Below, piece after piece: positions 2,156-40,501 of a stretch of DNA of 64,000 nucleotides. The translations under genes were made by a program, and so were the position numbers. Within the stretch, counting starts at the first letter, position 1; every line of letters starts with the position of its first letter. The stretch covers positions 1,954 through 65,953 of the forward strand of contig JAZRCM010000002.1 of assembly GCA_045659785.1 (NCBI GenBank). The letters are read 5' to 3'. The notes below the pieces were generated by a model. The model ran no database searches. It worked only from the letters and a program-made list of their open reading frames with translations, and was not told the DNA's origin. This stretch comes from Alphaproteobacteria bacterium. GTDB lineage: Bacteria; Pseudomonadota; Alphaproteobacteria; RF32; CAG-239.

Positions 2156-3777
2156 TGACAGAGTACGATGCAAAGGCACAAGAAGAAGATATCAGATATA
2201 TCAGGGGAAAAGTATTACGAAAATTCCCTCTTCTCGGTGTGACTATGGCATCATTGGAAACCTATCCTGACAGCACGATAAAAACGGCTTATACAGATGG
2301 TAAGAGTATACATTACTCTCCTAAGTTTTTTGCTAAACTTTCTGATGAAGAAAAAGTTTTTGTTTATGCTCATGAAGTTATGCATGTAGCTTTCAATCAC
2401 ATTATGCGAAGCAAAGGAAGACACCATAAGTTATGGAATATTGCAACAGATTCCGTGATTAATCAGATATTGAAAGAAGAAGGTCTTCCTCTTGTAAAAG
2501 GCGGTGTAAACATAGAAGAAGCACTTAATAAATCAGCAGAAGAAATGTATGAAAAACTCTTAAAGAAAAGAGAAGAAAAAAGGAAGCAAAAGGAAGAAGA
2601 GGAAAAAAGGAAACAAGAAAAAAGCAATTCGACAACTTCGCAAGATAATCCCGAACAACAGAGAGACAATCAAGAACAGGAAGAAAATCCTCAAAGTCAA
2701 GAAGATAATAATCAGCAAATAGAGAACAACGAAGACAACAATCAAGCTGATAATGAACAAACAGAAAATACCGACGAACAAGAACAACGCGATAACGGAG
2801 ATTCCGAGGAAGGAAACTCCGATGATGAAAATTCCGTCGAAGAAAATGATGATACTTCTGATAATGAAGAAGATAGCGATGAATTTGACGAAGATATTTA
2901 TGATGTTTTAGATGATGAAAACGAAGATGTCGGACACGCAGACCACCAAATTTGGAAACAAGCCGTAGAAGAGGCAGAAAAACAACAAGCTGCAGAAAAC
3001 GTCCAAAGCGGCACAGGAGAAAGAAGCGAAGGTAACAACGATGATACTTTCGAGAAAGGCTTTGTCGCCGATAACAAAGAAGAACGTGCTCAACAAATTA
3101 AACGAGCAAGACAAATGCTTGAAAAAAGCAAAGCTGAAGCTCAAGCTTCAATACAGGGACAATCATTTGGTGATGTGGGGGAAATTTGCAGAGGAGAAGA
3201 AGTTGTTAATTGGAAAAGAGTATTAAAAAATTCAATAGAAAAAGAAGAAATGCGATGGTCATATCGTCGAGCTTCAGCGGAAAATGATTATGCTGCTAGG
3301 TTAGAAGAAGTGGAAACTGATGAAATGGCAGAAACAGAAGTTATGCTTGATGTCAGCGGTTCTGTTAATGAAAAAATGATCAAAGAATTTTTACGACAGC
3401 TTAAACCTATTTTGAAAAGTTCTAAACTCAAAGTCGGTTGTTTTGATGATAGAATATATGATTTTGCAGAAATCAAAAAAGATAAAGATATTGATGAGTT
3501 CAAAGTTCCCGGTGGCGGCGGTACAAATTTAGATAAAGCGGTACGAGCCTTTTCAAAAAGTAAAAAAGTAAACAAAATAGTATTTACGGATGGATATGCA
3601 TGGGGAAGTGATATGCCTCAAGACGATTTGAAAGGCACAAATGTTCTATGGCTCGTCTATGATAACAGAGACTTCCACCCTTGTTGCGGAAAAGTTATTT
3701 ATGTTGACAAAAAACAATTCACGCAAGGAGCAAGACAATCTTTTGCTCAACAAGGAAAAGACGGATACTTATGTTAA
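2155..3777 (+). CDS. DUF2201-type putative Zn metallopeptidase (HExxH) with a C-terminal vWA domain (MIDAS motif) and a very long acidic low-complexity linker.
   Basis: N-terminal YAHEVMHVAFNH followed by WNIATDSVINQ. C-terminal vWA with DVSGSV (DxSxS) and GGGT. About 2540-3140 is E/D/N/Q-rich. Start overlaps the previous stop. Confidence 0.7.
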   Translation: MTEYDAKAQEEDIRYIRGKVLRKFPLLGVTMASLETYPDSTIKTAYTDGKSIHYSPKFFAKLSDEEKVFVYAHEVMHVAFNHIMRSKGRHHKLWNIATDSVINQILKEEGLPLVKGGVNIEEALNKSAEEMYEKLLKKREEKRKQKEEEEKRKQEKSNSTTSQDNPEQQRDNQEQEENPQSQEDNNQQIENNEDNNQADNEQTENTDEQEQRDNGDSEEGNSDDENSVEENDDTSDNEEDSDEFDEDIYDVLDDENEDVGHADHQIWKQAVEEAEKQQAAENVQSGTGERSEGNNDDTFEKGFVADNKEERAQQIKRARQMLEKSKAEAQASIQGQSFGDVGEICRGEEVVNWKRVLKNSIEKEEMRWSYRRASAENDYAARLEEVETDEMAETEVMLDVSGSVNEKMIKEFLRQLKPILKSSKLKVGCFDDRIYDFAEIKKDKDIDEFKVPGGGGTNLDKAVRAFSKSKKVNKIVFTDGYAWGSDMPQDDLKGTNVLWLVYDNRDFHPCCGKVIYVDKKQFTQGARQSFAQQGKDGYLC

Positions 3778-5600
3778 AAATAATAACGGACGGAAGCCAT
3801 AAGTTCTTCTAAATCATTACCGTTTTTATAGTCTTCGTAACGATATTCTGCGGCAAGTCCCCAATTTGTAGAAAGAGGAATATTAGCTTCAACAGAATAT
3901 GTTGTTTTATTGCCTAACCAATTTGTTGCATACATCTGTTTAGCTTCTGCCAAAAGCTTGAAATATTGAAAATGAATATAGCTTCCGGCTGTAAATTCTA
4001 TACCGGCATATTGATTGTGAGGTAAAAATCCGCCATAAGCTCCCTCTACTCCACTATTTATGTAAAACCACAAAAAATCGGTGAGTTCGATAGTGCCACC
4101 ACCATTTACTTTTATTCTTGTTGCATATCCCTCTTTGTCGTTTTCCGGATTTAATACTCGCCAAACATCCCAATTTATGCCAAAAGAAGTCGGTGTAAAC
4201 ATTTGATTAATCGGAGATAATGATTTAATTCCCAATATATTAAATTCGCTTAAAACAGTTTTGTGCGATTTGTCATAATGTCGCCAACGAGAGTTAAGAA
4301 AATTTATTTCCGCTCCGGTTAAAAGGCCATAATCATTATCAGTTAAAGAGTGATATGCCGGACGAAATGATATTTCTTGAAAAGCTTCTCCATTGCGTTT
4401 ACCTGTTCCGATGGTTGTTCTCATCGCTTCGTGAGATTTTAATGGTGATTTTCCTGTAGGATTTTCACTCATTTGAGCCTTTTGATTTTGTAATTTATTG
4501 CGAGCCATCAACCCTTTAAAACTGCGTTTACGATATTCGGTAATTTCAAATTCTTTTTTCACAAATTGATATTGCACATATTGATAAGCAGTTTCCAAAA
4601 CATCGGCTTTTTGCTCGTCAGGAATATTATTCAAGCTATAATCATTATCTTTTACCGCTGCAATAAATGCCTTCTCCTGCTCTTTATTCATCTGCTTTAC
4701 TCTATGCACGATTTTAGATTGTCGTGACGGGCGATAGTTTATATCTTTTACCAAGTTATCGCTGTTATATACGGCCTTTATGGTATCTACCGGAATTGTC
4801 TGAACCGGAAATTTATCGGCAAGTTGCAATGACGGACGAACTGCATCAAGCATTTCCATAATCATATAAGAACAATTTTGGGTAAAGAAATAATAACGAG
4901 TTTGTGTTTGCCCTATTTCCCACAAATGAGCTACAAACATATCCAACTCTTGCGGAGAAAAATTTAAACTCAACTCCCAAATATCACGGTTTTCAATATT
5001 ATTATAGGTATTGATTATGTCATAATACGGTTTTACGGTCCAGCCACCGTAATATCCGCCGGTTAATCCATAAATAGCAAACAACACACTATTTTCTTTC
5101 CCGGCTGTAAAAGCACCATAATTTGCACCATGTGCCAACAGTTGCGTTCCTTGTCTGGATGTATCAATTCGCAATAATGTATGTCCGAAAAGAGACGACG
5201 GATTGTTCATATAAGCATCGGTAAAAAGTAAGGTAACTCCGGATGGTTGCAAGTCTTTTTTGAATTGTTCAAACTCATCACATTTTAGATTAACTTGCTC
5301 TACCAAGCTGTTGTTTTTAAGAAAAATATGTCTTGCCGGAAAAAGACACATTTTTTTCATGTCTTGTTTTTCTTCAAACAATTTTATTGTTGCTTGAAGC
5401 TCACTTTCGGGATTTGTTTTACCATCTTCTGCCAGAAAAAAACTATCACTATCAATACTTGATTCATATCCTCCGAAAAACTTAGGACGATAATGAACGA
5501 GCGACAACCATTGAGGAGAATTTGCCGTATTTTCAACTGCTGAAACCGGCGAAACCAACCACAAAAAACAAAATATGAAAAAAATAAGTCTAATCATCAT
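3774..5600 (-). CDS. Exported DUF4105 (Lnb N-terminal domain)-like protein with a probable C-terminal outer-membrane beta-barrel.
   Basis: Signal peptide MMIRLIFFIFCFLWLVSPVSA. YYFFTQNCSYMIMEMLDAVRP motif, recalled as typical of DUF4105. The protein ends ...SVRYYF, a C-terminal aromatic residue typical of OMPs. Confidence 0.5.
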   Translation of the reverse strand: MMIRLIFFIFCFLWLVSPVSAVENTANSPQWLSLVHYRPKFFGGYESSIDSDSFFLAEDGKTNPESELQATIKLFEEKQDMKKMCLFPARHIFLKNNSLVEQVNLKCDEFEQFKKDLQPSGVTLLFTDAYMNNPSSLFGHTLLRIDTSRQGTQLLAHGANYGAFTAGKENSVLFAIYGLTGGYYGGWTVKPYYDIINTYNNIENRDIWELSLNFSPQELDMFVAHLWEIGQTQTRYYFFTQNCSYMIMEMLDAVRPSLQLADKFPVQTIPVDTIKAVYNSDNLVKDINYRPSRQSKIVHRVKQMNKEQEKAFIAAVKDNDYSLNNIPDEQKADVLETAYQYVQYQFVKKEFEITEYRKRSFKGLMARNKLQNQKAQMSENPTGKSPLKSHEAMRTTIGTGKRNGEAFQEISFRPAYHSLTDNDYGLLTGAEINFLNSRWRHYDKSHKTVLSEFNILGIKSLSPINQMFTPTSFGINWDVWRVLNPENDKEGYATRIKVNGGGTIELTDFLWFYINSGVEGAYGGFLPHNQYAGIEFTAGSYIHFQYFKLLAEAKQMYATNWLGNKTTYSVEANIPLSTNWGLAAEYRYEDYKNGNDLEELMASVRYYF

Positions 5601-5650
5601 ATAAAAAAACGGCTCTTGTTATTGGCAAGAGCCGTAAACTCAACAATTAA

Positions 5651-6106
5651 TTATGCTTTGAGCATAGCAAAAATTTGTTGTGTTACATAAATTGCATCAA
5701 CATTGCTGTCCGGGAAAATTGCAGCAAAATGTTGTTGTGATTTTTTAGCAAATTCGTTTTTATCCATATTCAAGATACCTGCTAAAGTATCAAGAGTTTC
5801 ACCCTCACCGCGAGAAGCGTCGAGAGCATATTGTTCCATATTGTTTTCAATGAAGTTGAAAACCATTTTTTGTGTACCGCCGCTAACACGACCGTTAGGA
5901 TCACAACCTGAAGTACCGAAAGTAATACCGAAAGTTTGGTTACCGAAGATACCGTTAGTGGTAACAGCCAAAATTTGCGGAGCCATACCGCTTTGACCAC
6001 GCCAAGCCATAGAACCGAGACCGCAACCGGTGCTGTCAATAGCTTGAGCATTGTTAGCAGCTAATAATGCAGCACAAGCAACTGATAATAAATAGAGTTT
6101 TTTCAT
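5651..6106 (-). CDS. Small secreted hypothetical protein (151 aa), possibly DUF3015-like.
   Basis: Signal peptide MKKLYLLSVACAALLAANNAQA. Gly/Thr-rich region with two Cys. Confidence 0.45.
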   Translation of the reverse strand: MKKLYLLSVACAALLAANNAQAIDSTGCGLGSMAWRGQSGMAPQILAVTTNGIFGNQTFGITFGTSGCDPNGRVSGGTQKMVFNFIENNMEQYALDASRGEGETLDTLAGILNMDKNEFAKKSQQHFAAIFPDSNVDAIYVTQQIFAMLKA

Positions 6107-6317
6107 TTGTTAATCTCCAATATATATTGTAAACATCATAACTATAACAATACAGTTTGCTTATGAAAAGCAAAAAAATAATTATTTAACAGAATATTTA
6201 TCTTGCAAAAAGTTTTCATACTTGTTATATAGTTTACATAATCTAATTTAACTTGGCTGTGAAAAGTGTTCTTTTCCAGTCAGATTTTTTTTAATTTAAA
6301 TCGATGAGGTGATGAAA

Positions 6318-6788
6318 ATGGATAAGTTCCCTTTAACTAAAGAGGGTTTTCTTGCTCTTGAACAAGAATTGAAGAATCTTAAAGGCGTTGAACGTCCCAA
6401 CATTATTGCAGCAATTTCCGAAGCTCGCGCTCAAGGAGATTTGTCTGAAAATGCAGAATACTCAGCTGCAAAAGAAAAACAAAGCTTTATCGAAGGACGC
6501 ATACAAGAATTAGAAGTAGTTATCAGCCGTGCTCAAGTTATTGATACATCTGCAAACAAAGGCGATGTAATTCGTTTTGGTGCAAAAGTGTTGGTTGTTG
6601 ACGAAGATACCGACAAAGAAAGCAAATATCAAATTGTAGGCGATTATGAAGCTGATATTAACAAAAATAAGATTTCGGTTTCTTCTCCTTTGGCAAGAGC
6701 CTTAATCGGTAAAGAAGTCGGAGATACAGCCGAATATACTGCTCCGGGCGGCAAAAAATCTTTTGAAATTTTAGAAATTTCATACTAA
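6318..6788 (+). CDS. greA: Transcription elongation factor GreA.
   Basis: [22 protein letters not shown]...[27 protein letters not shown], which is canonical GreA. SD AGGTGA lies 7 nt upstream. The ORF track begins at the GTG at 6309. Confidence 0.9.
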
Positions 6789-6817
6789 AAATTTTATTCA
6801 TAATGAATACATATAAT

Positions 6818-6851
6818 GTCGGAAGATAAAAGCTTCCGACATTTTTATTTT
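6818..6851 (+). terminator. Rho-independent terminator of greA.
   Basis: Hairpin GTCGGAAGATAAAAGCTTCCGAC followed by ATTTTTATTTT. Confidence 0.7.
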
Positions 6852-6864
6852 GTAGGAGAAAAAT

Positions 6865-7047
6865 ATGGAAAATAACGAAAAGAAAAACATCATAAACAAC
6901 TATCAAAATCGTTGTGATTGCAGTGAAGATGATAATTGCGGATGCTCTTATCCTAACAATACAAACTCCGATTATGATGCAGTCTGTCCTAAAAATCTAA
7001 ATCAGGAAGATTGTTGCAAAAAACGTTCGGCTTCTAAAAATGCCTGA
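6865..7047 (+). CDS. Candidate small Cys-rich protein (60 aa, 8 Cys). Its 3' end overlaps the convergent trxB by 46 nt.
   Basis: A strong SD (AGGAGA) sits 6 nt before the ATG, directly after the greA terminator. Eight Cys in 60 codons is unusual in an AT-rich genome. Confidence 0.3.
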   Translation: MENNEKKNIINNYQNRCDCSEDDNCGCSYPNNTNSDYDAVCPKNLNQEDCCKKRSASKNA

Positions 7048-7940
7048 CAACCGGAGCCTGCCGCAGTTATGGCTTGGCGATATACGGAATCTTTAACATC
7101 TCCGGCAGCAAAAACACCTTGAACGGAAGTTTGACAACTTCCCGGTGTGGTAACGATGTAACCATCTTTATCAAGCTCTAATACCGATTTGAATATTTCG
7201 GTATTGGGCTTATGTCCGATTGCCACAAACAGTCCGTCAACTTTTAATTCTCTGATATTATCGGTTTTAAGGTTTTTTATTTTCACTCCGTTCATAGATT
7301 TAGGTTCATCAGTTCCTAATACATCGGTTACGACACTATCCCATTCTATATTAATTTTCGGATGGTTAAATAAACGATTTTGCAAAATTTTATCGGCTCG
7401 CAATTCGTTACGTCGATGAATCAAAGTTACCGAAGCTGCGATATTGGAAAGATAAAGCGCCTCTTCTGCCGCTGTATTTCCACCCCCTACAACGGCAACA
7501 TGGCGATTGCGATAGAAAAATCCGTCACAAGTTGCACATCCTGATACACCGAATCCCCTATATTTTTCCTCATTCGGGAGTCCGAGCCATTTAGCTGTTG
7601 CTCCGGTAGCGATTATAACACTATCAGCCTGATAAGAGTGAAGTTCGGATATCAATGTAAACGGAGGCATCGTAAAATCGACTTCCGTTATATGGTCCTC
7701 AATAACTTTTACACCTAAAGATACGGCTTGTTGATACATCCTCTCCATAAGCTGAGGTCCTGATATCGGCTCCGGAAAACCGGGGAAATTTTCAACATCG
7801 GTAGTTATGGTTAATTGTCCGCCTTTTTGAAATCCGGATATCAATAAAGGATTTAACCCTGCTCTTGCGGCATAGATTCCTGCAGTATATCCGGCAGGTC
7901 CGGAACCGACGATAATGACTTTAGATTTGAATTGTGCCAT
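7002..7940 (-). CDS. trxB: Thioredoxin-disulfide reductase.
   Basis: FAD-binding motif GSGPAGYTAGIYAARAG, redox-active CATCDG, NAD(P)-binding motif VVGGGNTAAEEA. Confidence 0.92.
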   Translation of the reverse strand: MAQFKSKVIIVGSGPAGYTAGIYAARAGLNPLLISGFQKGGQLTITTDVENFPGFPEPISGPQLMERMYQQAVSLGVKVIEDHITEVDFTMPPFTLISELHSYQADSVIIATGATAKWLGLPNEEKYRGFGVSGCATCDGFFYRNRHVAVVGGGNTAAEEALYLSNIAASVTLIHRRNELRADKILQNRLFNHPKINIEWDSVVTDVLGTDEPKSMNGVKIKNLKTDNIRELKVDGLFVAIGHKPNTEIFKSVLELDKDGYIVTTPGSCQTSVQGVFAAGDVKDSVYRQAITAAGSGCQAFLEAERFLQQSS

Positions 7941-8061
7941 AATTTTTCTCCTTGAAAATAAGATACTATTTTCATTTTTTTATTCAAGAGTAAAAATCTT
8001 TTATAAAAACTGTTGACATATAACAAAAAATGTGCGAATTAAATAGCCGATGCGTGAGATT

Positions 8062-8138
8062 GCGCTCCTAGCTCAGCTGGATAGAGCAACAGCCTTCTAA
8101 GCTGTGGGTCAGAGGTTCGAATCCTCTGGAGCGCGCCA
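8062..8138 (+). tRNA. tRNA-Arg (anticodon TCT).
   Basis: Manual fold. Acceptor GCGCTCC pairs with GGAGCGC, then discriminator G and CCA. Anticodon stem ACAGC/GCTGT with loop CTTCTAA. T-loop TTCGAAT. Confidence 0.85.
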
Positions 8139-8148
8139 GTTTCAAAAA

Positions 8149-8178
8149 AAAGAGGACATTATGTCCTCTTTTTTTATA
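8149..8178 (+). terminator. Terminator after tRNA-Arg.
   Basis: Hairpin AAGAGGACATTATGTCCTCTT followed by a T7 run. Confidence 0.7.
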
Positions 8179-8364
8179 TTCCTATTGTTACCCCAAAAAG
8201 GAAAGGAGAGCCGTTAAACTCTCCTTTGTTACTATGAAAAACAATACTCTTATCAAGTATTCCAACATTTCTATCATTTTTAATTATAACTAAAAATATA
8301 CTTATGTCAACAAAAAAAGCTTGGTAATTTAAATTACCAAGCCGAAAAAAATCCAAGAGAATAT

Positions 8365-31811: not shown

Positions 31812-32945
31812 ATGGCTGATATAAAAGATGATGGAAAAACAGAAGAAGAAAGAAAAAAAGAATTAGAAAAAGAAGAACAAGAAAGAAAAGAAGAAGAAAA
31901 AAAACGAGAAGCATTGTCTGAAATAGAAGCTCAAGCTAAGTCTTTATCAGATAAGTATGGCGAAAAATTTGATGTAGGGGCCTATACTGCTGCTGCTAAA
32001 AGCTATGTAGATGAACATAAATCTTTAGAAGGATTCGATAGTTCTGCCTTTATCAAAGAAAAAGATGATGAAGATAAAGGTAAAGACAAAGATAAAGAAT
32101 CTGATAACGAAAAAATTGAAAATAACAAAGCTCTTTCTTTTTCGCTGAAAGAAAAAGATGGTAAGTTTACGGCTATCGGTACCGATGGAACGGTACTTGA
32201 AGGTAAAAACTTTGAAGAAATAAATGATAAAATATGTCAAGATTTAAAACAAAAAGTTGAAAATGAAGGACGTGAATGCGTTTTGGCTTATAGGGGAAAA
32301 AATCCCGAAAGACAAGAAATATTCTCAAGAAATGCCATAATGAAACATGGTGTAGCTATTTCTGATGGTTATCCTAAAGATCCTCAATTTTGGAAAGATT
32401 TGAAGAATGAATATTTAGCAGACAAAAACCACTCTTTAAAAGAGTGGGAACGTATGACCCGTAAAATTCCTGATGATGTTATGCAACGTACTCCGGAAGA
32501 ACAAGCTCGTAATAAAAAACTGTTGGATGCTGATTTGTTGAAAAAACTTCGTAAAGGTATGACCGCTAATGAAGCAGTGGGAGCTACCGCAGGTATTCCT
32601 CCAACTCCAACTATTCCTTTGAGTATCGACCAAACTAACGGACGAGCAAATAATGTCTCCGGTATGACTAACGTTCCAAATACACCGGTTGCAAATAACA
32701 TTCCGAATATTTCCAATGTGTCTAATGAAGCCGGAACTGTAGGACAGCCTACGGGAGAACAAGTCGGCGATCAAAAAGCTCAAGACAGAAATCTGGTAGC
32801 ACAAATGCGTCGAGGTATTAACCCTAACTCTCCGGAATATCAAGCTCAAATGGCTGCAGAAGAGCAACGCAGACAAAATACGCAAGAGCTTACTCCTGAG
32901 ATGCAGGAAGAAATCAAAAAACGTGCTCAAGATAAAATTAAATAA
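31812..32945 (+). CDS. Highly charged low-complexity hypothetical protein (377 aa).
   Basis: Lys/Glu-rich N-terminus (EEERKKELEKEEQERKEEEKKRE). Asn/Pro/Thr-rich middle. Terminator at 32962-32998. Confidence 0.45.
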   Translation: MADIKDDGKTEEERKKELEKEEQERKEEEKKREALSEIEAQAKSLSDKYGEKFDVGAYTAAAKSYVDEHKSLEGFDSSAFIKEKDDEDKGKDKDKESDNEKIENNKALSFSLKEKDGKFTAIGTDGTVLEGKNFEEINDKICQDLKQKVENEGRECVLAYRGKNPERQEIFSRNAIMKHGVAISDGYPKDPQFWKDLKNEYLADKNHSLKEWERMTRKIPDDVMQRTPEEQARNKKLLDADLLKKLRKGMTANEAVGATAGIPPTPTIPLSIDQTNGRANNVSGMTNVPNTPVANNIPNISNVSNEAGTVGQPTGEQVGDQKAQDRNLVAQMRRGINPNSPEYQAQMAAEEQRRQNTQELTPEMQEEIKKRAQDKIK

Positions 32946-33084
32946 GCAGTTTTGCAACAATGAAAAAAATCCCAAAAACTTTTTGGGATTTTTTCATTTT
33001 CAGTCATGTTTAAAATTAAAAAACTATACATAACTTACAAAAAGTGGTATAATTTGTCGTATTTTTCATCATAGGAGCAAAAAA

Positions 33085-33657
33085 TTGGATATATATAGAG
33101 TAGTATGTAGCGAAAATCAAAAACTTTATCCTAATGAAACGTTTGTTGATTTTATGCCGGCAGGAATGAACCGTTCTGAAAACTCGGTTATACATGATAG
33201 CATTCTAAAAATGCGAAGAATGGCTAACCCTGAAGTTGAAAGCTTAACCAATGGATTGCTATTATACGATTTTGGTGCCGGAAGAATTGAACTCAAATTT
33301 GAAAAAGCATACAATCATATTATCCGTCGTAATCAAGAAAATTTTCGCAAAAATTACGAACACTTAATTATTCGCAGATTTAAAGAAATGAGAGAAAATG
33401 GTAAAGATAAAACTCTTAATATCAATACTGCTACTCTTGCAGTTGTTTATGATTTTTATAAAAAAGATAATGATGATCTAGTTGCTCCACAAAGTGCTAA
33501 AGAGGTGGAATTACGTCGTAAAGCGGAAGAATATCGCCAACTGCAAAAACGTAGACAAGAACTTATGGAAAAAGTAAACGAACGTTCAAAAAAAGAACGC
33601 TCGTTTACATCTGAACAATTTTTAGCTTGGAAAATGGCTCACTATCAAGGAGATTAA
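33085..33657 (+). CDS. Hypothetical protein (190 aa).
   Basis: ORF with SD-like AGGAGCAA upstream. Confidence 0.4.
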   Translation: MDIYRVVCSENQKLYPNETFVDFMPAGMNRSENSVIHDSILKMRRMANPEVESLTNGLLLYDFGAGRIELKFEKAYNHIIRRNQENFRKNYEHLIIRRFKEMRENGKDKTLNINTATLAVVYDFYKKDNDDLVAPQSAKEVELRRKAEEYRQLQKRRQELMEKVNERSKKERSFTSEQFLAWKMAHYQGD

Positions 33658-35186: not shown

Positions 35187-35274
35187 GGAGAGTTGGCAGA
35201 GCGGTAATGCAGCGGATTGCTAATCCGTCATCGGTAACTCCGATGCACAGGTTCGAGTCCTGTACTCTCCGCCA
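35187..35274 (+). tRNA. tRNA-Ser (anticodon GCT).
   Basis: Acceptor GGAGAGT pairs with ACTCTCC, then G and CCA. Anticodon loop TTGCTAA. Long variable arm. T-loop TTCGAGT. Confidence 0.85.
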
Positions 35275-35275
35275 C

Positions 35276-35308
35276 TAAAAGCCTTGATTTATTCAAGGCT
35301 TTTTCTTT
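35276..35308. terminator. Bidirectional terminator between tRNA-Ser and the RNase H gene.
   Basis: Hairpin AAAAGCCTTGATTTATTCAAGGCTTTTT. Confidence 0.7.
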
Positions 35309-35369
35309 TATTTATCACTATAATTTTTATTCTTGATACAGTTAAATTGAGATAAGAATGAAATTTGTT

Positions 35370-35819
35370 CTATCTCTCGTAGAACTTTGCTCTGCCCTCA
35401 TTGGCGGCTAGATCCGCAAATCTGTTTCCCATAGAGTGAGTTTGAAAATTATGAGTATGAGCTTTGATTTTCTTAACCGTTATTCCTCTGCGTCTGATTT
35501 GATAAGCCCAATATTCACACATTTTATGCCTAATGTATTGCTCTTTTGTTCTCGGCTTATCTTGTATCTCATTATTTATATAAGACAAAGCTGTCAAACT
35601 GTCGGTATAAATAACCCCTCTTCCTTCTGTTAGGATACTTGCCAAATGGATTGCGAACAATTCCGCCTCGTTGTTGGAACTTGCTCTAATCCAATTAGAA
35701 TACACTTTGCGTTTTTGTCCGTCTTGAACAACAACACCTATTCCTGCAATTCCTTTTCTTTCATCATACGAACTGTCACAAAATGCTTTCATTTTATTTC
35801 CATCAACAACTTTTGCCAA
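35370..35819 (-). CDS. rnhA: Ribonuclease H (type 1 RNase H fold).
   Basis: DSS...GIGVVV, NNEAELFAIHLA, IYTDSL and KAHTHN...NRFADLAA align motif-for-motif with E. coli RnhA. The true start may be the internal Met at about 35792. Confidence 0.55.
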   Translation of the reverse strand: MAKVVDGNKMKAFCDSSYDERKGIAGIGVVVQDGQKRKVYSNWIRASSNNEAELFAIHLASILTEGRGVIYTDSLTALSYINNEIQDKPRTKEQYIRHKMCEYWAYQIRRRGITVKKIKAHTHNFQTHSMGNRFADLAANEGRAKFYER

Positions 35820-35873
35820 ATATAGAATCTCTTTTAATTCATATATATTATTCGTACAATACTTTTTCCAGTG

Positions 35874-37406
35874 TTATCTTCCATGATTTATCGTCATGTA
35901 TTTTATCACCTCACTATTAGAGGAAGTCTGTTCATCTGCATGAGATTTTTCGGGCTTATCTATAACATCTTTAGTTGTATCAAGAACTTGATGATGTAAG
36001 ACATCAGAATATCTTTTTCCGTCTTCATCTTCCCATTTAGGATAAGTGGGATCATTTAATTTAACTGTCTGTTTTTCGTTTTTTTCTGCTTTAAGAAAAT
36101 ATGAAATTTTAGGCTCAGGAATATCCGTCATCGGAACTTCATTATTCGGGTTCAAAAACTCACGCAGATTTAGCGTTTTGGTTTCTCCATCTGCTTCAAA
36201 CTGAATTGTATATAAACTTTCGACTGCCTGTTGAAAATACTCTTCTTTACATTTTTTAGGCAATCTTTTTCCTTGTTTGTAATAATCGGTATTTATCGCA
36301 TCAAGAAAAGCTTTTATTGTTTCCTGATAATCTTTATGCTTGTCAAATGATTTTACAAACTTTTCTCTCATATCTTCAGTCGTCAGCTTTCCGTCTAAAT
36401 AATCTTTAGCCATTTTGCTCATACCGTCAGCTTTTGATTTATCATAAACAAACATATTATTTATTACCAAAGCATGCTGCACTAAATCTGCATATTGAGA
36501 TAAGGTTAATTTTTTATCATACTTCGGTAGATTAAAACGTTCTGCGAGTGCTTCATTACTCTGATTACGCATATACATATATGTTTGCAACAACATATAG
36601 TTTAGCTGTTTTTTTCCGAACTCATCAAGTTCAATATCTTTTTTTCTATATTGATTAAAATTTACACCACCTATTGTATAGGCAACATTCAATGCTTTTT
36701 GATAATTTTCTTCATGCCATGGTGCATATTTTCCCGACAAATCGCTGGCGATTGCATTGAAAGAATTTTGAGTACTATACCTTGATTTGAAATTTTCTTC
36801 CCACATTTTTGTGGTTCCATTTACAATCAAATCCATATCTTTATCAAAATCTTCTCGGTACGGACTGCCGGGTTTAATCTCTCCTTTTTGTATGGCTTCT
36901 TTATAAAACTCGAAACGAGATGATACATCAAATACACTTATATCACCGGTTCGAATATATTTATCTCTTAAATATATTAACTCTGCCATATTGGCGGATA
37001 TCTCATCGTGCATATCAAGTTTATAGCTATGATCCGGACTTACGGGATATGAATACAATCCTTCTTTTTTATTATCCCTATGTTTTTGTTCATGAATAAC
37101 CGTAATTGCTATATTTTCTTCAGGAATTGTGTAACCCGGCTCATTGTCTTTGTCATAATGCAAGGTAATCGAATTATTTTTAGTTGAATAAGTTGCCAGA
37201 GATCTCGGATTTGCCAATGTGTCCACTTGATAATCAATTTCTCTGGTATGCCTTGTTAAAAGTTCTTTTTTAGGAGATTTCGGCTCGTGCTGTTCTGCAA
37301 TTTTTTGCGCTAATGACGATGACGGAACTATTGTTGTCAATATTGTTGCAGCATATATGAGCACTTTTTCTTTCCAACTTGTTGTTTTTTTATTTGTCTT
37401 TGCCAT
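35874..37406 (-). CDS. Secreted HExxH-motif protein, paralogue 1 (putative Zn metallopeptidase-like, unknown family).
   Basis: Signal peptide. VIHEQKHRDN...SYPVSPDHSYKLDMHDEISANMAELIY. About 45% identical to the 38391-39956 product. SD AGGAGA. Confidence 0.6.
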   Translation of the reverse strand: MAKTNKKTTSWKEKVLIYAATILTTIVPSSSLAQKIAEQHEPKSPKKELLTRHTREIDYQVDTLANPRSLATYSTKNNSITLHYDKDNEPGYTIPEENIAITVIHEQKHRDNKKEGLYSYPVSPDHSYKLDMHDEISANMAELIYLRDKYIRTGDISVFDVSSRFEFYKEAIQKGEIKPGSPYREDFDKDMDLIVNGTTKMWEENFKSRYSTQNSFNAIASDLSGKYAPWHEENYQKALNVAYTIGGVNFNQYRKKDIELDEFGKKQLNYMLLQTYMYMRNQSNEALAERFNLPKYDKKLTLSQYADLVQHALVINNMFVYDKSKADGMSKMAKDYLDGKLTTEDMREKFVKSFDKHKDYQETIKAFLDAINTDYYKQGKRLPKKCKEEYFQQAVESLYTIQFEADGETKTLNLREFLNPNNEVPMTDIPEPKISYFLKAEKNEKQTVKLNDPTYPKWEDEDGKRYSDVLHHQVLDTTKDVIDKPEKSHADEQTSSNSEVIKYMTINHGR

Positions 37407-37541
37407 AATTTAATCTCCTAAACGGGAAAATTGTATCATTTTTTATGCTTAATGTAAATACAAAAACTTTCTTGATTTTTTTGTCTATCTATGATATGTA
37501 ATACTCCTCGTTTTTATATTATTCACTAAATACTATTCTTT

Positions 37542-38345
37542 ATGTTTACAATCACAAAAACCATGGAGGATATTCGTATAATATGCGAAATTCTCGTTAA
37601 AAAGACCCCTTTTGTGAGGTCGTGTGAACTACATGGCACTCCAAAACTGGGTTATGAGATGTATCAGGGAGAGATGGTTAATCCATCTTGGGTATGGCCT
37701 GCAAGGGTTGAACTTACAAACGGAGAAGTGCACTTTGGCTGTTTTGTTTTTGATGAAAACACAAGCACTGCATCTTTCGGAAATGAAAACTTTTATCGTT
37801 GGAAAGAAAGAAAAGAGAACTTCTGCTATTTTGACAATGTAAAACAGGTGGCTTTCTATCCGGGAAACAAACCGAAAACGGAAGTCTTTTATGATGACAG
37901 CTGTGTGAGAGAGTTTTCATTATCAAATGATGATGTACTGCACATTTTTGAAGCTTATGTAAATTCACTTTACAATAATGCTGATGTAAAAAGTGTAGTG
38001 TTCAAAATCAAGCATGGCAATCCGTTCTACATTGCGGAAGTAACGATTGATGAAAAGACTGTTTATTACGAAATGCCGGTCGGACTTACTTATCATTCAA
38101 ATCTGCTTAATACGGCAAACCTTATTAAGGAGATTTCGGTAACAGAACTCAGCAATCCGTCGTTGTACCTTAACCCGAAAATCGGAAAGTCGTACTTGTT
38201 ATCGGAAGAAGCAATTCCTCAAAACAAGGCATGGATTGGCTCTCGTTTGATGGCTGTACAGTTTGACGTTGTCAAATTTAACTTTAAGCTCATTCCATTC
38301 AAAAAAGCAGATTTTGATGGTATAGAGCTGTTTGGCAACGTGTAA
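37542..38345 (+). CDS. Hypothetical protein (267 aa) with foreign-looking GC and codon usage, lying between the two paralogues.
   Basis: Visibly higher GC than its flanks. Followed by a bidirectional hairpin terminator at 38363-38395. Confidence 0.5.
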   Translation: MFTITKTMEDIRIICEILVKKTPFVRSCELHGTPKLGYEMYQGEMVNPSWVWPARVELTNGEVHFGCFVFDENTSTASFGNENFYRWKERKENFCYFDNVKQVAFYPGNKPKTEVFYDDSCVREFSLSNDDVLHIFEAYVNSLYNNADVKSVVFKIKHGNPFYIAEVTIDEKTVYYEMPVGLTYHSNLLNTANLIKEISVTELSNPSLYLNPKIGKSYLLSEEAIPQNKAWIGSRLMAVQFDVVKFNFKLIPFKKADFDGIELFGNV

Positions 38346-38390
38346 CATTTCTTCTTTTTGAACAAAAACCTCACTTTTATAAGTGAGGTT

Positions 38391-39956
38391 TTATTCATAT
38401 CCGTTGCGTTTTTTTATAGCCGCAAGATGTTCTATCGGATTTTTCATAAACTCCGTTATATGTTCCTTAGCTTCTGATATATAGCTTTTTTCCGGTTGTA
38501 AAACGACATCTTTACTCGTGTCTATGGTCTCAAAATATAATACTTCCGATACTCTTTCACCATCTTGATCTTTCCATTGACGATATTTAGGCTTCGGCAA
38601 ATTAATTGCGGAAACTTTTTTATTCTTCTTTTCTTTCACAAAAAATCCGTTAGATAAATCATACAAATCGCTAAACGGCATCTTATCGTTAGGATTTAAT
38701 ATTTGGAACAAATTTACATCTTCTTTTTTACCATCAACCTCAATATGAGCAGTATATAGTTTCTCCAACGCTTGTGTATAATAAGCTCCTTTATCCTTAC
38801 TCTTTCTTGGTATTTTTATATCTCCATTATAGGCTTCGCTTGATATTCGGTCTATCATTCCCTCAACAACAGAATAAAAATATTCATTTACAACACCAAA
38901 AGATTTTTCATATTCTTTAGCAATATCCTCTGCTGTTTTTTCCTTTTTAACATACGCTGTTGCCAAACTGGCCATATAATCTTGAGGAGTTTTTTCTGCA
39001 ATAGACATATGTTGAATTACAATAGCATGACGTAACAAATTGCGATATTCATCTATGGTTAAATTACCGTCGTATGCCGGCAAATAAAAACGTTCACTTG
39101 CTTCTTGATTATTTGTGCTTTTTACATGCACATAAGATTGAGCAAGCAAATAATTGAGACGTTTTTTACCGACTTCGGGAACTTCTACATCTTTTTCTAT
39201 GTACTGAGAAAAATCTACTCCGGCAATTTTATAGGTCAATTCCAAACATTTTTGATAGTTTTCATCATGAAACTCTGAATAACTACCTACATGGTCGCTG
39301 TTGTTAAAAGCATTATTTGCATTCTGTCTCGAATATGAGATTTCAACATTATTATGCCACATTTTTATAACACCATTGATAATCAATGACATTTCTTTAT
39401 CAAAATCTTCTCTGTATTCACTTTTCGGATTTATTATGCCTTGCTCTATTGCTTCTTTATAAAAATAAAACCTTGGAGATATTTCTAAAATTTTAGTATC
39501 ACCTGTTTTTAAGTATTTATCACGTATATATATTAATTCAGCAATATTCGCGGAAATTTCATTATGCATATCAAGTTTATAAGCTTGTTCCGGGCTTACG
39601 GGATATTTTCTTATACCTGCTTCTCTGTTATCTCTATGTTTTTGTTCATGAATAAGTGACATAGCCAAAAAATTTTCCGGTAAATCATAGTGGGCACCGG
39701 GTATTTTTTGATAAGACAGAGTAATTGTATTCCTATCTCCGGAATATGCTCCATAATTGACAATATTATCAAGCGTATCAACCTGATAATCTATTTTTCT
39801 GGTAGGTACAACTGTTACAATTTTGTCTGCATTATCATTGTCTTGTTGAGGAGCATCTTTAGCAACGGCAGCAGAGGGAATAATCGTAGATAAAAAGGTT
39901 GCAAAAGTAAGCAACTTTTTACGAAATCCGCCTTTTTGTGTTTTCTTTTCTGCCAT
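38391..39956 (-). CDS. Secreted HExxH-motif protein, paralogue 2.
   Basis: Signal peptide KKLLTFATFLSTIIPSAAVA. LIHEQKHRDN...KYPVSPEQAYKLDMHNEISANIAELIY. Likely start is MAEKK with SD AAGGA; the ORF track begins at 40025. Confidence 0.6.
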   Translation of the reverse strand: MAEKKTQKGGFRKKLLTFATFLSTIIPSAAVAKDAPQQDNDNADKIVTVVPTRKIDYQVDTLDNIVNYGAYSGDRNTITLSYQKIPGAHYDLPENFLAMSLIHEQKHRDNREAGIRKYPVSPEQAYKLDMHNEISANIAELIYIRDKYLKTGDTKILEISPRFYFYKEAIEQGIINPKSEYREDFDKEMSLIINGVIKMWHNNVEISYSRQNANNAFNNSDHVGSYSEFHDENYQKCLELTYKIAGVDFSQYIEKDVEVPEVGKKRLNYLLAQSYVHVKSTNNQEASERFYLPAYDGNLTIDEYRNLLRHAIVIQHMSIAEKTPQDYMASLATAYVKKEKTAEDIAKEYEKSFGVVNEYFYSVVEGMIDRISSEAYNGDIKIPRKSKDKGAYYTQALEKLYTAHIEVDGKKEDVNLFQILNPNDKMPFSDLYDLSNGFFVKEKKNKKVSAINLPKPKYRQWKDQDGERVSEVLYFETIDTSKDVVLQPEKSYISEAKEHITEFMKNPIEHLAAIKKRNGYE

Positions 39957-40060
39957 ATTTTTATCCTTTAACGGGATACATTGTAATATATTTTCAGCTA
40001 TTTGTAAATAAACAAAAAGCGACAATAGTCTGCCGCTTTTATTGATTAAAATATGTAAAA

Positions 40061-40501
40061 TTATACAATCATTGCTGTAAATTCTGCTTCAGAAACAAGC
40101 TTATCATCAACATAAGCCTTTCCTCTGAAAACGAAAATGTTACGGCGAGACTGAATTTTTTCTACATACATTTTCATTTGATCGCCAGGTTTTACAGGTT
40201 TACGGAATTTAACACCATCGATAGACATAAACAATACATTCGGTGTCTTATCTCCTTCCGAAGCTGCTGAAACAATAGCGCCTGCAGTTTGAGCCATAGC
40301 CTCAATTTGTAAAACTCCCGGCATTACAGGATTATTCGGGAAGTGACCTTGATAAAATTCTTCGTTCATTGTAAGATTTTTCAATCCCATACCTTTTTCA
40401 CCCGGAACTTCTACTTCTAATCTGTCAACCAACAAAAACGGATAACGATGCGGTAAAAGTTTCATGATATCTTCGATATAGTAGATTTTATTTTCTGACA
40501 T
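40061..40501 (-). CDS. fabZ: 3-hydroxyacyl-ACP dehydratase FabZ.
   Basis: LLPHRYPFLLVDRLEVEV...FYQGHFPNNPVMPGVLQIEAMAQTAG. Confidence 0.93.
   Translation of the reverse strand: MSENKIYYIEDIMKLLPHRYPFLLVDRLEVEVPGEKGMGLKNLTMNEEFYQGHFPNNPVMPGVLQIEAMAQTAGAIVSAASEGDKTPNVLFMSIDGVKFRKPVKPGDQMKMYVEKIQSRRNIFVFRGKAYVDDKLVSEAEFTAMIV

Follow-up and report, generated by a model that had tools for sequence, protein, structure and literature searches.

Two neighbouring minus-strand genes in an alphaproteobacterial chromosome, here called paralogues A and B, probably encode exported zinc endopeptidases with a gluzincin layout. They belong to an undescribed protein family restricted to gut and rumen Alphaproteobacteria, and they lie at a stable locus. 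The DNA analysed is a 64-kb stretch (the window) of Alphaproteobacteria bacterium assembly GCA_045659785.1 (lineage RF32; CAG-239), contig JAZRCM010000002.1, positions 1,954–65,953 of the forward strand. Within it we studied the block at positions 35187–40060; all coordinates given without a contig or locus name are window positions. We hold the exported-endopeptidase reading with moderate confidence, because each protein combines a predicted signal peptide with an N-terminal domain of gluzincin layout.

Paralogues A (510 amino acids, aa; 35874–37406) and B (521 aa from its ATG; 38391–39956) share 44% identity over 507 aa (E 7e-155) and are tandem, anciently duplicated paralogues. The blocks IDYQVDT, HEQKHRDN and YKLDMH[DN]EISAN are present in both and are kept family-wide. 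A consists of a predicted Sec signal (aa 1–33), a zincin-like N-terminal domain (aa ~50–262; 36621–37259) and a helical C-terminal half. A first-pass annotation, made from the letters of the window, had described two minus-strand paralogues of 510 and about 520 aa, their shared blocks (KIDYQVDTL, HEQKHRDN and the YKLDMH[DN]EISAN core) and their duplicated 5' leaders containing Shine-Dalgarno sequences, and we recovered all of these. It had further taken the pair for duplicated, secreted, metalloprotease-like effectors, possibly mobilised at a tRNA-Ser gene. The duplicated family and the putative zincin-like domain are supported by motif invariance and structural models, mobilisation is not supported by gene order in congeners, and an "effector" role is possible.

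The protein family and its N-terminal domain

Searches with A returned 162 relatives (clusters at 90% identity) among 5.8 billion protein clusters, all of them unnamed or "hypothetical" and none with a Pfam domain. A profile search extended this to 386 clusters (50% identity) at E ≤ 1e-3 among 1.84 billion cluster representatives. Scanning one genome per species gave 63 loci, all in gut or rumen alphaproteobacterial metagenome-assembled genomes (MAGs) or in evidently mis-binned contigs; the host animals were human, deer, sheep, goat and buffalo. The chromosomal surroundings of family members are ordinary housekeeping genes and differ widely from locus to locus; across the 63 loci, neighbourhood analysis turned up no partner gene that recurs, the best neighbour occurring in 9. 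The copy count that the first-pass annotation left to be made shows a multi-copy family, with two or three copies in several genomes and tandem pairs at 7 of the 63 loci. Neither A, B nor the orphan open reading frame (ORF) between them matched a family in Pfam, NCBIfam, PHROG or PADLOC; the largest family members gave no accessory domains in a Pfam scan, and literature searches for HEQKH and DUF6782 returned nothing relevant. The family is undescribed, restricted to uncultured gut and rumen Alphaproteobacteria, and is a new family inside a known superfamily.

The part shared across the family is the N-terminal domain of ~210 residues, which is the region that distant relatives match. Of 250 family domains, 249 retain the HExxH motif. 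Conservation beyond the motif is sparse. In an alignment of 41 diverse sequences (A3) invariance is confined to the columns H105, E106, H109, E135, R147, Y150, Y210, G247 and F250. In an alignment of the 91 most distant members (A4), with a mean column identity of 11%, only the two His, E135 and R147 are invariant, and E106 is present in at least 90%. The invariant Glu135, within EISAN, follows H109 by 26 residues. The HEQKH of A (aa 105–109) lies at 37080–37094 and its Glu135 at 37002–37004; the corresponding HEQKH of B (aa 103–107) is at 39636–39650 and Glu133 of B at 39558–39560, all on the minus strand. On the gluzincin reading, His105, His109 and Glu135 would be the zinc ligands and Glu106 the general base.

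AlphaFold2 (AF2) models of A are confident, with a predicted local distance difference test score (pLDDT) of 85.2 and a predicted template modelling score (pTM) of 0.81 for the full-length protein, and 91.5 and 0.90 for the domain alone. The 10-residue blocks that span residues 101–150 reach pLDDT 96–97. Both models place three strands (54–64, 71–74 and 79–85) directly before a helix that bears HExxH (96–114), followed by a helix that bears E135 (124–153). A family-wide HExxH on a modelled alpha-helix, with a beta-sheet immediately N-terminal to it, is what a zincin would be expected to have. Elsewhere the domain forms a bundle made up entirely of helices, which is unusual.

Fold searches of two independent libraries gave weak matches dominated by zincin peptidases. 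About 20 of the top 50 PDB matches are gluzincins (MATCAP, selecase, proabylysin, projannalysin, BlaR1 and anthrax lethal factor), with local alignments of 50–58 columns at 3.2–3.6 Å root-mean-square deviation and 19–26% identity. In the viral structure library BFVD, most of the weak matches that carry names are SprT-like, lethal factor, M34, PolyVal MPTase, IrrE or a crAss "zincin protease". Just one Pfam family, PF20573 (DUF6782, "Putative metallopeptidase family"), drew repeated matches from distant members, 5 of the 91 hitting it with a best E of 8.8e-6; in the three members examined, HExxH aligned at profile positions ~96–99.

Several results weigh against the peptidase assignment. Foldseek searches of the PDB and BFVD with the full-length and domain models found no significant structural match to a solved zincin, the best E-values being 0.68 and 1.2 (PDB) and 0.1 (BFVD). 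Sequence and profile searches of the PDB with A, with the full-length family profile and with the N-domain profile returned nothing relevant, and Pfam gave no match for A, B or 43 close relatives. The PF20573 matches come from the distant subgroup only, and in three members they score 14–17 bits, under the 27-bit gathering score. Nor does the order of elements in the models reveal the backing helix that canonically precedes the active-site helix. A search seeded with one family member (P0248) brought up no relatives labelled DUF6782.

Set beside known systems, the domain comes closest to gluzincins (MEROPS clan MA(E)), namely the minigluzincins selecase, proabylysin and projannalysin and the M48/M56 group of BepA/HtpX and BlaR1. 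Minigluzincins and M48/M56 proteins give its best local structural alignments, and it shares with gluzincins the HExxH on a helix, the invariant Glu (a putative third zinc ligand) 26 residues later on the next helix and the small beta-sheet before the active-site helix. Unlike them it runs to ~210 aa with four extra long helices, its invariant R147, Y150 and Y210 have no assigned counterpart, and it is joined to a C-terminal half of ~250 aa that is unique to the family; global fold and sequence matches are not significant. The likeness to DUF6782 covers the sheet, the HExxH helix and part of the Glu helix, but does not extend to A, B and their close relatives, and DUF6782 is itself uncharacterised.

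These features could also belong to a protein that does not cut peptide bonds: a zincin-shaped binding module, a pseudo-enzyme or a metal-dependent hydrolase of some non-peptide substrate. The want of a significant match to any solved peptidase and the unusual helical bundle are what such a protein might present, as is the lone exception to HExxH, P0173 (408 aa), a candidate pseudo-enzyme whose motif reads HKQKH, with the catalytic Glu changed to Lys. Against this, H-E-x-x-H and the downstream Glu are near-universal in sequences that otherwise keep 11% mean column identity, which argues for catalysis, and HExxH+E zincin domains of clan MA are almost always peptidases. We regard the non-protease explanation as unlikely. 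Given the motif invariance, the confident models in gluzincin order, the zincin-dominated weak fold matches and the sub-threshold DUF6782 matches, it is reasonable to call the N-domains of A and B zincin-like putative metallopeptidase domains. Structure prediction thus supplies the strand and helix order of gluzincins but no significant fold match, and for the latter reason we word the peptidase role as putative.

One further motif, PxYxxWxDxDGxRxSxV, stands far from the catalytic domain in sequence, at aa 453–469 of A (36000–36050), and is nearly invariant in short and long family forms. It might pack against or occlude the active site.

Predicted export signals and evolutionary rates

The leader of A reads MAKTNKKTTSWKEK-VLIYAATILTTIV-PSSSLA↓Q, with a basic n-region, a hydrophobic core and predicted cleavage at SLA↓Q; that of B ends in LLTFATFLSTII-PSAAVA↓K, with predicted cleavage at AVA↓K. 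The same plan recurs in the orthologues of both, where a basic stretch and a hydrophobic core of 12–13 residues precede SLA↓Q, AVA↓K, SSA↓Q or SFA↓K. In the AF2 model of A the leader region has low pLDDT. A Sec-type signal peptide of this kind would deliver A and B outside the cytoplasm.

Export is not a family-wide trait, which counts against extending the exported-protease reading to the family at large. By a hydrophobicity scan, ~45–55 members, A, B and their orthologues among them, have signal or lipobox-like leaders, some with a lipobox-like L-x-G-C, and about three quarters of the family have no signal peptide. The leaderless proteins are longer (median 657 versus 540 aa) and have an extra C-terminal region. 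Because most members lack a leader, Sec export plausibly belongs to the A/B-containing subfamily and not to the family as a whole. We also considered a positively charged C-terminal signal, like that of type IV secretion substrates, in the leaderless members and rejected it, their net charge being the same as in signal-bearing forms. A terminal RGR-like tail occurs in only ~31 of 199 members.

Rates of change were judged against two congeneric MAGs whose housekeeping proteins are 89–100% identical to those of the window. Identity to the congeners is 97–100% for frr, recA, bamA and uppS, 92–94% for fabZ and lpxD, 84% for the RNase H-like gene, 79–81% for the orphan ORF, and 65–66% for A and B, which are the fastest-evolving genes of the neighbourhood. 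Change is unevenly spread along the two proteins. Between orthologues, the catalytic core (aa 101–200) is 78–88% conserved, the C-terminal half 50–65%, and the C-terminal half and leader overall 32–68%. This pattern fits a constrained active site combined with a rapidly changing recognition surface. It also fits what would be expected of proteins that face a host, phage or competitors, and not of an envelope housekeeping protease. The helical, quickly diverging C-terminal half would probably select the substrate or target, and the site of action would be outside the cytoplasm, on host, dietary, competitor or envelope proteins.

Both paralogues are preceded by an identical promoter-like site, TTTACA-17-TACAAT, at 37430–37458 for A and 39980–40008 for B (both on the minus strand), followed by leaders with Shine-Dalgarno sequences that can be aligned with each other and with those of orthologues. 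A terminator-like hairpin at 40015–40040 (minus strand) closes the bamA-lpxD-fabZ transcription unit before the promoter-like site of B. With such a site each and with terminators bracketing the units, A and B are most likely transcribed independently of fabZ, each from its own, similar, predicted promoter. The start of B listed among the program-called ORFs, a TTG at 40025, overlaps both the fabZ terminator and B's own promoter-like site. The true start is likely the ATG at 39956, which has an AAGGA Shine-Dalgarno sequence and agrees with orthologue starts.

The position of B raises the question of whether the paralogues serve the cell's own envelope, as periplasmic quality-control or assembly proteases tied to bamA-lpxD-fabZ. 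E. coli BepA combines a signal peptide with an M48 gluzincin domain and a helical TPR domain, an outline that A and B share in their predicted signal peptide, gluzincin-like N-domain and helical C-terminal half of ~250 aa. B lies directly 3' of bamA-lpxD-fabZ in all three congeners (the window's genome and the two MAGs), and the E-x-x-A-N that begins with the putative Glu ligand resembles the E-x-x-A-D of M48/M56. But no Peptidase_M48 or TPR domain of Pfam was found in the scanned family proteins even at E ≤ 1, B has its own promoter-like site behind the fabZ terminator, and other members sit at unrelated loci with no conserved neighbour. The family is multi-copy, A is present or absent among congeners, and most members have no signal peptide. 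Finally, ~65% identity, against 89–100% in neighbours, is too fast for a housekeeping factor. We consider a BepA-like role quite improbable.

The chromosomal locus

The window has a GC content of ~36% and the gene content of a Gram-negative organism. Upstream of the block, on the minus strand, lie rseP-bamA-lpxD-fabZ; fabZ (40061–40501, minus strand; Pfam FabA E 2e-32) is the housekeeping gene at the block's boundary. At the other end are a tRNA-Ser(GCT) gene (35187–35274, plus strand; called by ARAGORN, Rfam tRNA 60.8 bits), a terminator-like hairpin 3' of it (35277–35303, plus strand; 11-bp stem, then a T-tract) and a divergent RNase H-like gene of 149 aa (35370–35819, minus strand; Pfam RNase_H E 8e-15). 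These are the tRNA and RNase H bounds given by the first-pass annotation. The same tRNA is found at the congener loci L001 and L070.

Gene order is shared with the congeners. In the roe-deer MAG RGIG4207 it is identical, running pyrH-frr-uppS-cdsA-rseP-bamA-lpxD-fabZ-B-orphan ORF-A-RNase H-tRNA-Ser-SIMPL-NUDIX and on to recA. The water-deer MAG RGIG9009 has the same order minus A, so that B is the copy common to all three congeners and A is variably present. Because A and B are 44% identical, against ~65% between orthologues, their duplication probably predates the genus-level group.

Carriage of the family by phages or plasmids was considered and rejected. A plasmid search found no family copies. 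There were two "phage" matches, of which the weaker was left aside. The best, L072 (MT838386.1, "UNVERIFIED: Bacteriophage sp."), is a 7-kb faecal contig with DUF3078, a 772-aa family member and a UvrD helicase, the same context as in the bacterial locus L004; because of this shared context L072 is most likely a bacterial chromosome fragment mislabelled as phage.

Could the block be a genomic island, acquired horizontally at tRNA-Ser and inserted after fabZ with displacement of lpxA? A tRNA gene at the border, lineage-specific genes inside, the absence of lpxA 3' of fabZ, and variation of the fabZ-recA region among congeners by insertion and deletion of orphan ORFs would all suit that history, and the first-pass annotation had suggested mobilisation at this tRNA. 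The two congeners nonetheless carry the same order, tRNA included, only copy A being missing in one of them. No integrase or mobility gene is among the ORFs of the block (RNase H-like, A, orphan ORF, B), and a search for direct repeats turned up the paralogue cores (D1, D2) as the only long ones and no att-like copy of the tRNA 3' end. Nor is there a compositional anomaly, gene GC in the block having z from −1.4 to +0.5. Housekeeping genes in ordinary transcription units flank the block on either side, and neither the plasmid search nor the one "phage" match examined points to a carrier. An island origin is therefore most implausible. Nothing about the tRNA-Ser gene suggests integration there. 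With shared congener order and neither integrase, att-like repeat nor GC anomaly, we conclude that the block is inherited vertically and forms a stable though plastic part of the chromosome rather than a mobile element. The missing lpxA, correctly noted earlier as absent from its expected position, is in fact absent as an lpxA-like sequence from all 64 kb of the window, where an approximate lpxA query matched only lpxD; its absence after fabZ is a conserved trait of the genus-level group, not a recent disruption.

Between the paralogues lies the plus-strand orphan ORF of 267 aa (37542–38345). As earlier described, it is followed by a likely terminator: a hairpin at 38365–38392, between the convergent orphan ORF and B and likely bidirectional, has a 12-bp stem and a U-tract (dG −17.3 kcal/mol, z −5.7), and 0 of 200 shuffles folded equally well. 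The further claim that the ORF is GC-anomalous and foreign does not hold. Its GC of 0.381 is average for the window (mean 0.367, standard deviation 0.029, 59 genes; z +0.47; z +1.7 for third codon positions), and it appears GC-rich only because it is flanked by the AT-rich paralogues (GC 0.33, z about −1.3). Its relatives amount to only 3 clusters among 5.8 billion proteins, all from the same genus-level group, and it keeps the same position in the congeners.

The arrangement recalls a toxin-immunity cassette, with A and B as exported toxins and the orphan ORF as cognate immunity protein or inhibitor. Fast-evolving tandem paralogues with a small orphan ORF between them, kept beside B in all three congeners, would suit such a cassette, as would the tandem pairs elsewhere in the family. 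The ORF, however, runs in the opposite direction to A and B, lacks the signal peptide that they are predicted to have, and is more conserved (~80%) than the putative toxins; it was never found beside the other family members examined in the neighbourhoods of the 63 loci, and no PADLOC or polymorphic-toxin domains were found. Strand, predicted compartment and narrow distribution make an immunity or inhibitor role for the orphan ORF unlikely, and the cassette as a whole is very improbable.

Two other features of the region were noted. The RNase H-like gene scores 25 bits against an NCBIfam RNase HI cut-off of 160 and matches a phage RNase H family, PHROG 531, about equally well as Pfam RNase_H (E 5e-15); it is a conserved neighbour, outside the protease family. 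The stretch between NUDIX and recA varies by whole orphan ORFs (31812–33657 in the window, 13700–16982 in L001, 12801–14686 in L070). In the window it holds a 190-aa ORF and a Glu/Lys-rich low-complexity ORF of 377 aa, 71–80% identical to its counterparts. Between these two, L001 adds a further pair of ORFs (156 and 219 aa), and the 190-aa ORF is missing from L070. No credible family was found for these orphan ORFs, the 190-aa one giving only a weak NleE-family match (E 0.0075).

Copy number, effector-like features and significance

Family genes also turned up on contigs L007 (JAZTXF010000076.1), L011, L013, L019 and L039, in bins that bear the names Candidatus Gastranaerophilaceae, Bacteroidaceae or Eubacteriales. 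Across A and the RNase H-like gene L007 matches the window at 100% identity, and for that reason these contigs appear to be alphaproteobacterial and mis-binned. A third family copy, at 35% identity, lies on L011, which belongs to the same bin as L007, so that the window's genome probably holds at least three. Larger back-to-back pairs, of ~900–950 aa plus ~765–775 aa with 12 bp between them, occur in other gut alphaproteobacterial genomes (L004 5274–10295; L013 and L015 at ~3082–8277). Given these pairs, tandem duplication is a recurrent habit of the family.

A second group of known proteins bears comparison, the zincin effectors and toxins that host-associated bacteria secrete or translocate and the "polyvalent" zincin domains of phages or ICEs. 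Like anthrax lethal factor (M34) and NleC/NleD-type effectors, the family sets an HExxH core within larger, fast-evolving, lineage-specific proteins. Lethal factor/M34, SprT and PolyVal proteins are among its weak fold matches, and one member has a weak MPTase-PolyVal match. One member, as in this group, carries an N-terminal ankyrin repeat. Unlike these proteins the family shows no significant similarity to them, and no secretion-system, phage or plasmid association at the loci examined. The ankyrin-bearing member, P0138 (L071 6001–7830), is leaderless, with an Ank_2 match (E 2.7e-5) just below the Pfam threshold; its context is ordinary chromosomal, and an adjacent 301-aa ORF also has a faint Ank_2 match.

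A broader proposal, which we advance tentatively and with less conviction than the exported-endopeptidase reading of A and B, is that the family is a lineage-specific, expanding arsenal of zinc proteases, a novel elaboration of the gluzincin plan, which mammalian-gut Alphaproteobacteria aim at proteins of hosts or competitors. Copies of the A/B type would leave the cell via Sec or as lipoproteins, and the leaderless majority, including the ankyrin fusion, by another route. The C-terminal half would set specificity, and repeated tandem duplication would yield new specificities.

The family, with at least 386 clusters at 50% identity and no Pfam model, merits a database model of its own. The gain is one of annotation, together with a concrete biochemical hypothesis, rather than a new type of system. 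Uncultured gut and rumen Alphaproteobacteria are widespread and their biology is essentially unexplored; if they are exported proteases, the members of this family would be good candidates for interaction with host, diet or neighbouring microbes.

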